Source: Protoeuglena noctilucae (taxonomy: Eukaryota). From it: a DNA stretch of 45,034 nt. The stretch lies in NCBI GenBank assembly GCA_958009085.1, contig OY253691.1, positions 1 through 45,034 on the forward strand. The letters are read 5' to 3'. Shown here one piece after another: positions 4,779-43,428 of this stretch (positions are counted from its first letter, which is position 1; every line of letters begins with the position of its first letter). The notes beneath the pieces are model-generated. The model searched no databases and had not been told where the DNA came from. It saw only the letters and a program-made list of their open reading frames with translations. Position numbers and translations under genes: made by a program.

Positions 4779-5490
4779 ATGTTTCAACGTTTTGTATACT
4801 CGACCAATCATAAAGATATTGGAAGCATGTATCTTCTGTTTAGAGCCTTCTCCGGAAGACTTGGAACCAGAAGATCTCTACTCATTCGAAGAGAGCTGAG
4901 ATTTCCCGGAGACCAAATTCTCGGCGGAAATTATCAGTTTTATAATGTACTTATTACCGCTCATAGAATTCTTATGATTTTTTTTATGGTGATGCCCGCT
5001 CTGATGGGAGGATTTGGGAATTGGTTTGTTCCTATGATTCTCGGCGCTCCCGACATGAGATTCCCTCGGCTTAACAATGTATCCTTCTGGCTTCTGCCTC
5101 CAGCACTTCTGCTACTTCTCTCTTCAAGATTTGTCGAAGGAGGAGCGGGAACCGGGTGGACGGTGTATCCTCCTCTAAGTACCGGAAGAAGTCATTCAGG
5201 AGGAGCTGTCGATCTGGCGATCTTTAGTTTTCATGTTTCGGGAGCTTCGAGTATTCTAGGTTCGATGAATTTCATCAGAACCATTCTCAATATGCGTCCT
5301 AGAGGAATGACCCTGAGGCGAATGCCTCTGTTTAGATGGAGAATGCTTATTACTAGAATTCTTCTGATTACCTCTCTTCCCGTGTTCGCCGGAGCGATTA
5401 CCATGCTTCTGACGGACCGAAATTATAACACCACGTTTTTCGACCCTGCGGGAGGAGGGGATCCAGTTCTCTACCAGCATCTCTTTTGGT
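4779..5490 (+). CDS. cox1: Cytochrome c oxidase subunit 1, exon 1
   Basis: [30 protein letters not shown]; ends before GTGCG. Confidence 0.95.
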
Positions 5491-7880
5491 GTGCGCCGTT
5501 TCACTACTTTAGAGTCTGTTTTGTTTGCCTTTTTTTTGGCATCCAACAAAACCACCTCACTCTGTCCTTTGAAAAAGCTTTTTCTCCTCTTTTCCAAAGA
5601 GGCCAGGCGATTTCTCTGGGGTGTAAGGCAGTCCCCCTTCGGTTCGACGAAGTAGCGGGGATGAAAAGGTGGCATGAGAAGAAACTATGCTCTTCGAAAA
5701 GTGACATCGAGCCAGGGCTTCTGACGACGAGGATGACGAACTCGAAAAAAGTCAAGAGAATGCTCTTCGCTTTCCGTCCTATGCTTCGCATAGGACACAT
5801 AGGAAGAGAAGTGGATTCTTCCTTCTCTTGGCTACTGAGAAGTTGGGATTCAGGAACCCATAAGCTTAAAGCATGGTCTCAGGCTTATGATGAGGGTGCG
5901 GATTTTACAACCAGAAAAATTCCGCTCGACAGAGCCCTCATGACTGGAGGATACACTCCAAGAGGAGATCCTCAAAGAAGAAATCCCTCAAAAAGATATT
6001 TTCCAAGAGGATCCCCCTCTTATCTCAGCGAGCGTCCGAGGAAGCAGACACGACTCTTTAGCGGGAACTCGGGAAGGACGGAGATTGGCTTTGGGTCTCT
6101 AGGGAGCTTTTTTTTCCGAAAAGCTCCTCAGCTCCAAACCTATCTGTCTGGCGGAGGAGGCGTAGTAGCGAAAGCGGGAGTAATGACCCCGCTGCGAAGG
6201 ACCTCCAGGCTAATTTCGAGAAAAGGTTTTCGACGTGACTACGTAACCAGCCGCCCACGTCTTCCTTTTCTACTCGGAAATTCGATTCCGAAATGGATTA
6301 TTCATTCGATTAGACATGTTGTATCTACTGAAAAACGAACAGCTAGTGCCTCTACCTCAAAACGTCTCATGGAAGGCCAATATAAATTTGGAAAACCCAA
6401 TCGTCCCAAACTCATGGATAAAAGCGTACAAAAAGCTCTGGAAAGCGTACTCCATGAGGTGTATGAACCCAGATTTCATAGTGAATCTCACAGATTTCGA
6501 CCAGGTCGTAGCAGACACACTGCCCTCAAAGATATCAAACGTACCTGGAAAGGAATCAAATGGGGAATCGAGGCTCATATGCTTCCAAGCTTTCAGCCTC
6601 GAATTCTTCTCGATCTTCTAGACCAACGTATGGATTGTCGAAAAACACGTGGTCTGGTAAAAAGTCTGCTCAAAACAGGTTGGGTCCAAATTCATGGTCT
6701 AGCCAACTTTGCCACTCATTCTGAAGTTAACTCTGAAGTCTTTGATCTCGACAATCTTTGCCTTCGAAGAAATAAAAAAAAAACACTTTGGACCTTTTCT
6801 AAAAGAAAAGCTAACAGGAAAAAAAAACCTTTTCCTAAGACCAAAAATTCCCAAAAATCGCTGAAGAATTCACAGATTCGTATGGTCAGTCTGAATGGGC
6901 TATTTTGTAATATTTATTTTCATGAACTCGATAGATTCATGAAAAAACTTCAAACTGAAGAAAATCTTGGACGAAGCAAGCGACTGAATCCTAGGTATGT
7001 AAAAATTCGGGATGCAATGTCACGCGCTCGCTCTCAAGGCGAATTTGAGAAAAGACAAAAACTTCGAACTCTTCTTCACCGGACGCCTTCGAAGCATGCT
7101 CAAGATCCTAATTATCGACGAGTGGTGTACAGACGATATAGAGATCAATTTGTGGTAGGTGTGATTGGTCCGAAAAGTTTTGCGGTCAAAATTCAAAACA
7201 GTATTCATCGATTTCTCCAGACTCATCTTCAGGTGTCTCTGGATGAAACTCGAACCAAACTGGTACATTTTGAAAAATCGAGACTGCATTTTGTAGGAAG
7301 AGAAATTCATGCCAATCCACAAACATCCTACCTTGCGACTCGAAAAATGAAAAAAACTGGTCAACAGGTCAAAATGCGAATGATTCCTCGGCCTTTTCTC
7401 AAAGCTCCTCTTCTGTATCTTTACCAAACGCTTCATTATCATGGGCTGGCCAAAATTCACTATGATCCTAAGAATCCCCGAAATTATAGGGTGATTGCTA
7501 CGCGTCGGATGAAACTGATTCCTCGCTCTCATGAGGAAATTCTATTTCATTACAATCGACTCAGACGTGGGCTTCTCCACTATTACTCTTTTAGAGATAA
7601 TCGTAGAGGACTTAGAAATCTTCTGTATACACTCAAACTTTCATGTGCTCTCACCCTGAAAAGCAAATACAAGCTTTCCACTCTGAGAGCCAGATTCAAA
7701 CGATTTGGTTCTTCCCTAAGATATGTTCCCAAAAGGAAAACTTCTTCTGCAAAGAAAAGACTTCTCTTTTCCCCAGAGACATTTGCCAATTTCCCCGAAA
7801 AAGAGAAATTCACGTATCGGGGAGATCTGAGACTCCATTCGCTTTTTCAAACAAAATACAAACTTGTAAAATCTAATTAG
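5491..7880 (+). CDS. Intron-encoded maturase with degenerate RT, in frame with cox1 exon 1, no HNH domain
   Basis: SHx[15 protein letters not shown](AGA)DQ in place of YADD, X-domain [11 protein letters not shown]. Confidence 0.85.
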
Positions 7881-8201
7881 GAAAAAAAGGAAATTAAGAA
7901 TCCGAGGAAGAAATTAGCTGGCGAGCCGTATGATGGGTGACTATCACGTACGGTTCTGAGGGCGGCTTTGGTTTTATCTAAACTTTGTTTAGGTGTCTCC
8001 CTTCTCTTTTTTTTCTTTCTACTTTTGGAACTCTATGAAACATTAATTATGTCTCGTCTGCTTCGCTAACCTCTCTTTCAGAGAGGTTACTAAACTTTGT
8101 TTAGGTAAATAAGTTAGTAAGTGATTCTAGGTAAGACAACAGAATTCCAAAGAAAAGTAACAAGGAATCAGAAGAATGGGAGGCCTGCGGCCGACCCCTA
8201 C
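5491..8201 (+). mobile_element. Group II intron 1 in cox1
   Basis: 5' GTGCG, domain V gagccgtatgatgggtgactatcacgtacggttc near 7923, 3' gacccctAC; splicing restores HLFW-FFGHPEV. Confidence 0.93.
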
Positions 8202-8773
8202 TTTTTGGACATCCAGAAGTTTATATTCTTATTCTTCCAGGATTTGGTATTGTGAGCCAAATTCTTTCTAGATTTGCCCATAAGCCAATTTTTGGATACA
8301 TGGGAATGGTTTATGCTATGTCAAGGATTGGAATTCTTGGTTTTATCGTATGGGCTCATCACATGTATACTGTAGGTCTCGATGTAGATACTCGAGCGTA
8401 TTTTACCACAGCTACTATGATTATTGGAGTTCCAACTGGAATTAAAATTTTTAGTTGGGTCAGAACCATTTGGGGAGGGCAACTTCTTATTCGAACCCCT
8501 TCTCTCTTTGTTCTAGGATTTCTGTTTCTATTTACAGTTGGAGGAGTTACTGGAATTGCTCTAGCTAATGCTGGACTGGATATTGCTCTTCATGACACTT
8601 ATTACGTAGTAAGACATTTTCATTACGTACTAAGTATGGGGGCAGTTTTTGCTATTTTCGCCGGATTTTATTATTGGATTCCTAAAATTCTTGGTCGAGG
8701 GTACAATGAAACGCTTAGACAAGCCCATTTCTGGCTCTTTTTCCTAGGGGTGAATCTAACTTTTTTCCCCCAA
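8202..8773 (+). CDS. cox1: Cytochrome c oxidase subunit 1, exon 2
   Basis: [39 protein letters not shown]. Confidence 0.95.
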
Positions 8774-42216: not shown

Positions 42217-42506
42217 TGTTGTACTTTTAGGTAGGGCGAAGAACTCGAAGAGGAATGAAATACACTCGAAGAGGGCAAATAACTTGAAAAGGGTAACTCG
42301 CTTACATACTTATTTCTATTCACCTGCCTTATCTCTAATCACTAACCTATGCGAAGCATAGGTAAGTGAATGATGTTTCACATAGGTTAGGTAGGCTGCT
42401 ATGCTGTCCTCTATTCACTTACTTACCTATGTTTTGTTTAGGTTAACAAAACATAGGTAAGTAAGTGAATAGAGGTAAAAACCAAATGAAGACTGAAAAA
42501 AGAAAC

Positions 42507-42589
42507 ATGGATATGGCGGAATGGTAGACGTACTAGATTTAGGCTCTAGACTTGAAATAAAGGTGTGGGTTCAAGTCCCACTATCCATA
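42507..42589 (+). tRNA. trnL: tRNA-Leu(UAG)
   Basis: Acceptor atggata/tatccat, loop tt-TAG-gc. Confidence 0.92.
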
Positions 42590-42681
42590 AAAATTATATA
42601 TTATAGAGTGGCCTTACCTCTATTCACTTACTTATGCAAAGCATAAGTAAATGAATAGAGGTAAAATAACTCAAATAAATT

Positions 42682-43428
42682 ATGGACTACGCAATTTGGT
42701 GGCGAAGCACATGGACTTATCTTTTTCAAGACTCAAGATCTCAAATTGCTACTGCAATTACAAATTTTCATTCTGATGTAATGGTAATTATGCTATTTGT
42801 AGTAGGATTTGTACTTTGGATTCTAACTCGAACAAGAATTCTTAGAATGAAAGCTCAACGCACTTACAGAATTACTCACGGTAGAAGAATTGAGATTATC
42901 TGGACTCTTCTTCCAAGACTAGCAGTATCAAGTATTGCTCTACCGTCTTGGACTCTTCTTTATTCAACAGATAGAATTCCAGGAGAAAGAACTAATCCTT
43001 TTGATCTAACCATTAAAGTGACAGGTCGACAATGGTACTGGTGTTACGAATATGGTCTAGATCTAAGAGAAGATGTAGAAAGGCCTAGTTTTGAAAGTTA
43101 TATGACTAGAGAAAGAGATCTCCCACAAGGAGGTCTTCGTCTCCTAGAAGTTGATAATCGAGTGGTTACTCCAAGAAATCGTATGATTCGAGTTCTAGTG
43201 ACTAGAGGCGATGTTATTCATAGTTGGGCAGTACCATCTCTAGGAGTCAAGTGTGACGCTATTCCAGGACGGCTCAATCAAGTGTTTTTTCTTAGAAATC
43301 GAGAAGGTGTTTTTACTGGGCAATGTTCTGAACTTTGTGGAACCTACCACAGATTCATACCAATTGTGGTGGAAAGAATAGGAATGGAGCATGCGCTAGT
43401 GTGGCTTACTGAGAGAATGGATTCGTTA
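42682..43428 (+). CDS. cox2: Cytochrome c oxidase subunit 2 (TTA stop)
   Basis: GRQWYW, RLLEVDN, DVIHSWAVPSLG, GQCSELCG. Confidence 0.95.

Follow-up and report, generated by a model that had tools for sequence, protein, structure and literature searches.

What do AGA and AGG (together AGR, R standing for a purine) specify in the mitochondrion of Protoeuglena noctilucae? The question is raised by contig OY253691.1 (assembly GCA_958009085.1), whose positions 1 to 45,034, the whole stretch of DNA analyzed here and hereafter called the window, were proposed in a first-pass annotation, made from the letters alone, to use both codons for alanine and not for arginine. AGR is a codon pair that is often reassigned in mitochondria, and sense-to-sense reassignments are rare. 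Among the NCBI translation tables that change the pair, table 2 makes it a stop, tables 5, 9, 14 and 21 serine, table 13 glycine, and tables 24 and 33 serine for AGA and lysine for AGG; alanine is given by none of tables 1-33 as held in Biopython, in line with the statement of the first-pass annotation that such a code lies outside the standard tables. The window represents the complete mitochondrial genome of a green alga placed by its protein matches and genome features in Marsupiomonadales (Pedinophyceae), with a guanine + cytosine (GC) content of 38.96% and with all recognized genes on the + strand. ARAGORN called 20 transfer RNA (tRNA) genes, Rfam detected the large and small subunit ribosomal RNAs and three domain V elements of group II introns, and Pfam identified cox1 (three exons, two intron open reading frames, ORFs), cox2, cox3 (two exons, one intron ORF), cob, nad1-6, nad4L, atp6, rpl14, rpl16 and rps12. 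Marsupiomonas sp. NIES 1824 was the top named protein match in all three homology searches, with identities of 60% for nad5, 77% for nad1 and 81% for cob. We found that the reading of AGR as alanine is well supported, the evidence being strong for AGA and weaker for AGG. It applies to the interval 4779..43428 for which it had been proposed, but that extent was too narrow, as AGR use spans the whole genome and includes rps12 and ORFs outside the interval.

The evidence that carries this reading comes from the residues that homologs hold at AGR positions. Two sets of alignments were used. For the first, nad5, nad1, cob and nad4 were translated with AGR masked as X, and homologs were retrieved and aligned (1871 columns; 114, 110, 111 and 126 distant homologs, respectively). 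Sequences from close relatives and copies of the window itself (P0001-P0006, P0121-P0130, P0241-P0249 and P0361) were excluded, as were, for nad4, 23 of the 150 representatives, P0362 among them, with lengths outside 380-620 aa. For the second, which is independent of the first, 12 other gene pieces were searched by tblastn against 80 other organellar or bacterial loci (at most 66% identity) obtained from a metagenome scan with cob, which yielded 5-28 loci for each piece and 2039 columns; none of the relatives with about 80% identity was found among these 80 loci. A column was considered conserved when at least 80% of its entries were one residue, while columns of the first set with a residue in fewer than 70% of the homologs and columns of the second set with fewer than five loci were dropped.

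In the first set, 29 columns are conserved as arginine, with CGN in 27 and AGR in none, and 66 as alanine, with GCN in 47, AGA in 10 and AGG in two. Raising the level to 95% left 22 arginine columns (CGN 20, AGR 0) and 52 alanine columns (GCN 39, AGR 9). The second set contributed 29 arginine columns (CGN 25, AGR 0) and 55 alanine columns (GCN 30, AGA 12, AGG 1). When both sets are pooled, AGR occurs in 0 of the 58 conserved arginine columns, 52 of which are CGN, the codon family noted in the first-pass annotation for the conserved arginines it had checked, and in 25 of the 121 conserved alanine columns. In the first set, the enrichment at alanine (12/66 conserved alanine columns against 23/803 other conserved columns) has a Fisher odds ratio of 7.5 (p = 2.9e-6), and the lack of AGR among the 27 conserved arginine columns that carry an Arg-family codon has p = 5e-16, AGR making up 73% of the ‘Arg’ codons under the standard code. 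Codetta-like log-odds calculated on the first set favor alanine for AGA (Ala -105, Ser -160, Arg -447) and for AGG over arginine (Ala +1, Arg -48), and for each of the remaining codons seen at least five times the standard amino acid scored best. A tabulation of this kind had been suggested in the first-pass annotation, in which a dominance of arginine, serine or glycine at AGR columns was regarded as contrary evidence; AGR was never found at a conserved arginine and is enriched at conserved alanine, AGA standing at conserved columns of both sets as alanine 22 times and as serine and glycine five times each.

Individual sites agree with these counts to different degrees. All the AGR contexts quoted in the first-pass annotation were found in the sequence (four in cox1, those of cob, cox3 and rpl14, and four consecutive AGA codons in nad2). 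In cox1, TAH(AGA) aligns with alanine in 3/3 printed Protein Data Bank (PDB) chains and 13/15 loci, and DM(AGA)FPR in 3/3 printed chains and 15/15 loci. The cob site L(AGA)MHY (codon 59) is alanine in 111/111 homologs, cox3 AA(AGA)WYWH in 2/2 chains and 6/7 loci, and rpl14 V(AGA)DNSG in the sole chain found. Of two further cox1 contexts, VV(AGA)HFHY is alanine in the plant chain and in 12/12 loci and glycine in the yeast chain, and GL(AGG)GMPRR is mixed, with alanine in 13/15 loci but serine and asparagine in the two printed PDB chains. The arginines of the latter motif are indeed CGN codons, as GMPRR is coded GGA ATG CCT CGT CGA.

The same columns bear on a serine meaning of AGR, as in NCBI tables 5, 9, 14 and 21, or a glycine meaning, as in table 13. 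Some AGR codons do stand at conserved serine or glycine columns, and serine has the second-best score for AGA both in our calculation and in the Codetta results of PMC12574857, in which table S9 assigns AGA of the matching genome to A with 104 aligned and a logP of -38.9 for serine and -216 for arginine. Neither meaning accounts for the 22 alanine columns or for the higher alanine score, and the invertebrate and ascidian mitochondrial codes do not fit the columns of the window. Moreover, AGA codes the alanine of a catalytic motif in two intron ORFs, and the tRNA that matches AGR bears the acceptor set of an alanine tRNA, with tRNA-Ser(GCU) being a distinct, long-arm molecule. We therefore consider a serine or glycine meaning very unlikely.

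Amino acid composition points to the same reading and bears on the possibility that AGR is ordinary arginine in divergent proteins, or is edited to an alanine codon in the RNA. Over the 17 conserved gene pieces the standard code gives 10.4% arginine and 5.8% alanine, with runs of arginine where homologs are mostly hydrophobic, whereas AGR as alanine gives 2.9% arginine and 13.3% alanine. Arginine from CGN alone amounts to 2.3-3.5%, matching homolog medians of 1.9-2.8%. The sole point in favor of standard arginine is the default tRNA-Arg label that ARAGORN gives to the AGR-reading tRNA, and it is set against the 58 conserved arginine columns free of AGR. Concerning editing, contigs of RNA libraries from three studies cover cob, nad2 and atp6-nad4-nad6 with no letter differing from the DNA, and the sole differing site in the 10 kb covered (31636) is intergenic; although such libraries can contain DNA, this is good, if not final, evidence that AGR is not edited. 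Taken as one, standard arginine or editing has next to no probability.

Further support is given by close relatives. In 23 of them, translated by the source databases with the standard code, the AGR sites of the window are occupied by R in 59%, then by A, V, S, G, L, T and I, with K, Q and H outside the ten commonest residues. The GCN sites hold A in 73%, with R (8%) as the commonest mismatch, and the CGN sites hold R in 90%, followed by Q and K. The exchange pattern of the relatives at AGR sites is that of alanine and not that of arginine. One of the 23 (P0130, 2.7% arginine) lies outside the clade that uses AGR in this way; it was kept in these counts and removed from the counts at AGG sites given below.

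How the codons would be read is suggested by the tRNA genes. The sole tRNA of the window able to read AGR is tRNA(UCU), and no tRNA with a CCU or an NCG anticodon was found in the window by ARAGORN or Rfam. Its acceptor stem forms 7/7 pairs, G1:C72, G2:C71, G3:U70 and C4:G69 among them, and is followed by A73. The ordinary tRNA-Ala(UGC) has G1:C72, G2:C71, G3:U70 and A73, so the top three pairs and the discriminator are equal in the two tRNAs. Alanyl-tRNA synthetase (AlaRS) recognizes its tRNAs chiefly by the G3:U70 pair and without reading the anticodon, so that tRNA(UCU) would be charged with alanine through the identity set G3:U70 and A73, plus G1:C72 and G2:C71. The charged tRNA would pair with AGA and, through wobble at U34, presumably with AGG as well, the reading of both AGR codons by a U34 tRNA being standard wobble. 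Arginine would then be encoded by CGN only, and since no tRNA gene matching CGN is present, the tRNA-Arg for these codons is probably imported; import has likewise been inferred in PMC12574857. Judging from columns and tRNA genes together, AGA and AGG are very probably alanine sense codons decoded by an AlaRS-charged mitochondrial tRNA(UCU). As for its origin, a recent copy of trnA(UGC) was considered and rejected, as only 45/72 positions are identical to trnA against 54/72 to trnK(UUU), the closest tRNA in the window. This low identity to trnA agrees with the view of PMC12574857, according to which tRNA(UCU) arose by remodelling of trnR(ucu).

Several observations weigh against this reading, or against parts of it. 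Agreement with alanine is limited to 25 of the 65 AGR codons that stand in conserved columns (38%), whereas GCN agrees in 47/63 (75%, first set) and the other codons in 623/771. The summed log-odds of AGA are below zero for all amino acids, and AGA is also found where homologs are conserved for Ser, Gly, Leu, Thr, Lys, Val, Trp and Tyr. Reading AGR as alanine makes the proteins rich in alanine (11-18% against homolog medians of 5.7-9.0%), the AGR alanines being added to a normal share of GCN alanines. With regard to the tRNAs, trnP(UGG) also has G3:U70 and A73, albeit with C1:G72 and A2:U71, while CCN columns are clearly proline (CCT in 22/22 conserved columns, for example), and consequently the charging of a tRNA is not decided here by G3:U70 alone. 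In tRNA(UCU), the anticodon stem is formed by three Watson-Crick pairs only, flanked by U.U and A.C mismatches, and the minimum-energy fold of this tRNA in ViennaRNA is not a cloverleaf; the tRNA reading of 26942-27013 was kept because of the Rfam score of 72.2 bits and the 7/7 acceptor pairs.

For AGG in particular, the conserved columns are Ala 3, Ser 3, Leu 1, His 1 and Gly 1, and in table S9 of PMC12574857 Codetta returned ‘?’ for AGG in 6/6 Marsupiomonadales, with serine outscoring alanine in three of the six. AGG is also far rarer than AGA: among the 4580 codons of the conserved genes AGA, the second commonest codon, occurs 306 times and AGG 38 times. The joint claim of the first-pass annotation is thus strongly borne out for AGA and more thinly for AGG taken alone, and AGG could be read otherwise or ambiguously, for instance partly as serine via the near-cognate tRNA-Ser(GCU), or be poorly decoded, with AGA as alanine. 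We regard this as improbable, however. AGG occupies two nearly invariant alanine columns of nad5 (114/114 and 113/114) besides the cox1 site before GMPRR, and, R aside, alanine is the residue that the relatives most often show at the AGG sites of the window (12 of the 61 cells, against six with Thr and four with Ser). Between AGA and AGG there is no significant difference in the Ala:Ser ratio (Fisher p = 0.14), and one U34 tRNA would read both codons. Furthermore, AGG arises from AGY (Y, a pyrimidine) by a single third-position change and serine to alanine is a mild replacement, so that serine columns are to be expected among young AGG codons.

A comparable explanation may apply to the modest agreement of AGR as a whole. 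To become AGR, GCN needs two substitutions, but AGY (Ser), GGA (Gly), ACA (Thr), AAA (Lys) and ATA need a single one, and about half of the non-alanine conserved columns that hold AGR correspond to such one-step neighbors. Sites that held alanine before the reassignment would all have been GCN, and given these distances new AGR codons would arise chiefly where alanine replaces other residues. There is still a small chance of ambiguous decoding, as alanine and serine, for AGG or a part of AGR, or of an AlaRS that uses more than G3:U70, a possibility suggested by the 38% against 75% agreement with alanine, the even split of AGG columns between alanine and serine and the G3:U70 pair of trnP. Ambiguous AGR or extra AlaRS determinants would, if true, imply a mechanism unlike the textbook G3:U70 switch.

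The alanine reading also holds in the introns. In orf761 of cox1 and in the 831-aa ORF of the cox3 intron, AGA codes the alanine of the catalytic YADD motif of the reverse transcriptase (RT), as placed by alignment with LtrA and GsI-IIC RT (PDB chains). AGR is used as freely as in the host genes, with 44 codons in the ORF at 5490-7880, 36 in that at 8806-11091 and 40 in that at 20035-22530. The intron ORFs follow the host code, as the AGA-coded YADD alanine indicates. The RT motif of the first cox1 intron ORF reads Y-(AGA)-D-Q, and from this motif its reverse transcriptase may be inactive. None of the three intron ORFs had a tblastn match among the 80 metagenomic loci.

A second peculiarity of this genome is found at the gene ends. 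TTR codons (UUR in the mRNA) occur in the 18 gene pieces near the 3′ end only, in rpl14 (24639-24641), nad1 (25851-25853), cob (33228-33230), nad2 (34960-34962), nad6 (41304-41306) and cox2 (43426-43428), and once genes are ended at the terminal TTR none is left among the 4580 codons. The sole trnL of the window has the anticodon UAG (ARAGORN); trnL(UAA) was not found in the window, which has no cognate tRNA-Leu(UAA/CAA). With UUR as stop, table-11 ORFs overrun the gene ends. For AUA, codon 226 of cox2 (43357-43359, ATA), which lies within the copper-site motif and follows its second histidine, aligns with methionine in 28/28 loci, and this one site favors ATA as methionine. Another ATA, codon 233 of the same gene, aligns with Val or Ile. 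According to PMC12574857, the meaning of AUA in Protoeuglena noctilucae could not be deduced unambiguously. An ATA at codon 56 of rps12 that aligns with arginine in 5/5 loci was regarded as an alignment offset and nothing was drawn from it.

Database records carry the consequences of the standard code. Stored copies of cob (P0241) and nad1 (P0122) and a one-residue variant of nad5 (P0001) have arginine at AGR. The last of these, of public metagenome origin, differs from the standard-code nad5 translation of 12397-14355 only at residue 474 (I/N), and its source is a near-identical strain. Translation with any NCBI table yields about 340 false arginines in 17 conserved proteins, and genes that run beyond their UUR stops. 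The features on which these statements rest are collected in Table 1.

Table 1. Coordinates of tRNA genes, protein-coding genes and intron elements of the window, with AGR codon counts and remarks on boundaries.
Feature	Position	Strand	Remarks
tRNA(UCU)	26942..27013	+	ARAGORN label tRNA-Arg; Rfam tRNA 72.2 bits; putative AGA/AGG decoder
tRNA-Ala(UGC)	37364..37435	+	ARAGORN, Rfam; ordinary alanine tRNA, used for comparison
tRNA-Ser(GCU)	17804-17890		Separate long-arm tRNA
trnP(UGG)	35358-35430		
cox1 exon 1	4779..5489	+	3′ boundary approximate; Pfam COX1; PDB alignment stops at residue 237; 16 AGA, 1 AGG (counted over 4779-5540)
cox1 intron 1, maturase ORF in the frame of exon 1	5490..7880	+	Pfam Intron_maturas2; 34 AGA, 10 AGG
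cox1 intron 1 group II domain V	7921-8005		Rfam
cox1 exon 2	8201..8773	+	Boundaries approximate; 4 AGA, 1 AGG
cox1 intron 2 ORF (orf761), RT/maturase	8806..11091	+	Pfam RVT_1, Intron_maturas2; 22 AGA, 14 AGG
cox1 exon 3	11473..11799	+	5′ boundary approximate; 7 AGA, 2 AGG over 11464-11799
nad5	12397..14358	+	54 AGA, 10 AGG
nad4L	16918..17217	+	5 AGA
rpl16	17217..17636	+	10 AGA, 2 AGG
cox3 exon 1	19718..20005	+	3′ boundary approximate; 8 AGA over 19718-20038
cox3 intron ORF (831 aa), RT/maturase	20035..22530	+	28 AGA, 12 AGG
cox3 intron group II domain V	22742-22823		Rfam
cox3 exon 2	23122..23727	+	5′ boundary approximate; 13 AGA
rpl14	24246..24641	+	Ends at first TTR codon (codon 132)
nad1	24837..25853	+	Ends at TTR codon 339; 33 AGA over table-11 ORF
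nad3	31134..31487	+	5 AGA
cob	32058..33230	+	Ends at TTR codon 391; 14 AGA, 2 AGG over table-11 ORF
nad2	33673..34962	+	Ends at TTR codon 430; 51 AGA, 6 AGG over table-11 ORF; four-AGA run
atp6 ORF, long non-conserved insert	37691..39004	+	28 AGA, 5 AGG
nad4 ORF	38985..40457	+	True start probably further downstream; 26 AGA, 3 AGG
nad6	40623..41306	+	Ends at TTR codon 228
cox2	42682..43428	+	Ends at TTR codon 249; 19 AGA, 1 AGG over table-11 ORF
rps12	44195..44620	+	Outside 4779-43428; 2 AGA, 2 AGG

Some features of the genome lie apart from the code. A 96-nt tRNA-like sequence at 4202-4297 (Rfam 50.6 bits, not called by ARAGORN) has the acceptor stem and the greater part of the D arm in common with trnI(GAU) at 26168-26240 and carries about 24 nt inserted in the anticodon region; it is probably a decayed duplicate of that gene. 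RNA-library contigs from several runs switch among the spacers 31500-31750, 33560-33610, 35230-35350, 37245-37550 and 40475-40500, which suggests dispersed repeats in the intergenic spacers. The atp6 ORF encodes 437 aa, the best of its two stretches matched by Pfam ATP-synt_A being residues 285-431, with a long non-conserved part ahead of it. At the 3′ end it overlaps with the beginning of the nad4 ORF, in which homology to nad4 begins only at about residue 60-90.

Compared with known systems, AGR as alanine is already known in this group, having been published for the order and apparently for this very genome. It was predicted in PMC7748506 (2020) for Marsupiomonas sp. NIES 1824, in which UUR is lacking and AGR is disproportionately frequent, and PMC12574857 (2025) shows it throughout Marsupiomonadales, together with UUR stops and a tRNA(UCU) bearing G3:U70 and A73; the authors of the latter state that some interpretations will need biochemical or proteomic tests. 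The window corresponds to the Protoeuglena noctilucae entry of PMC12574857 (Table 2 and text) in length (45,034 bp), GC content (38.96%), number of tRNAs (20), the two introns of cox1 and the one of cox3, and an orf761 with UGA as its stop. What the window adds is small, namely the AGA-coded YADD alanine, the AGR alanines on top of a normal GCN share, the G3:U70 pair of tRNA-Pro and the ATA at an invariant cox2 methionine. Term searches of PMC12574857 gave no mention of the YADD alanine, the trnP pair, the alanine surplus or a check for RNA editing.

Two other systems come close. In mitochondria of Sphaeropleales (Chlorophyceae), AGG, and sometimes AGA as well, encodes alanine (PMC6551751, PMC6821328), and the first-pass annotation had named both this case and that of Marsupiomonadales in agreement with the published accounts. 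Common to Sphaeropleales and the window is an arginine-to-alanine reassignment by a tRNA with an AlaRS signature, but the origin is independent, in another class, and the decoder there is a tRNA(CCU) ‘of various origins’ as opposed to the tRNA(UCU) found here. Sphaeropleales also change UAG and UCA, whereas in the window UCA is serine (6/8 conserved columns) and UAG serves only as an ORF end; with no sense UAG, no UCA stop and no tRNA(CCU), the window does not have a code of the Sphaeropleales type (NCBI table 22 and relatives). In the pedinophyte-derived plastids of green dinoflagellates, AGR is likewise not arginine and probably alanine (PMC12574857); both AGR codons are changed, as in the window, and a tRNA(UCU) carries alanine identity elements. 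They differ in being plastids, in a column signal split between alanine and glycine and in having edited RNA, unlike the window, whose RNA contigs match the DNA. The closest likeness remains that to Marsupiomonadales, with which the window shares AGR codons that are heavily used, enriched at alanine and not arginine, UUR at gene ends only, a tRNA(UCU) with G3:U70 and A73 and an origin other than trnA, and the lack of a trnR for CGN. A further mark of the published code, connected with UUR as stop, is a nuclear mtRF1a changed in its codon-binding region. The case illustrates how an acceptor-stem change in one tRNA can shift two codons from arginine to alanine, and in everything tested the code of the window agrees with the published Marsupiomonadales code.

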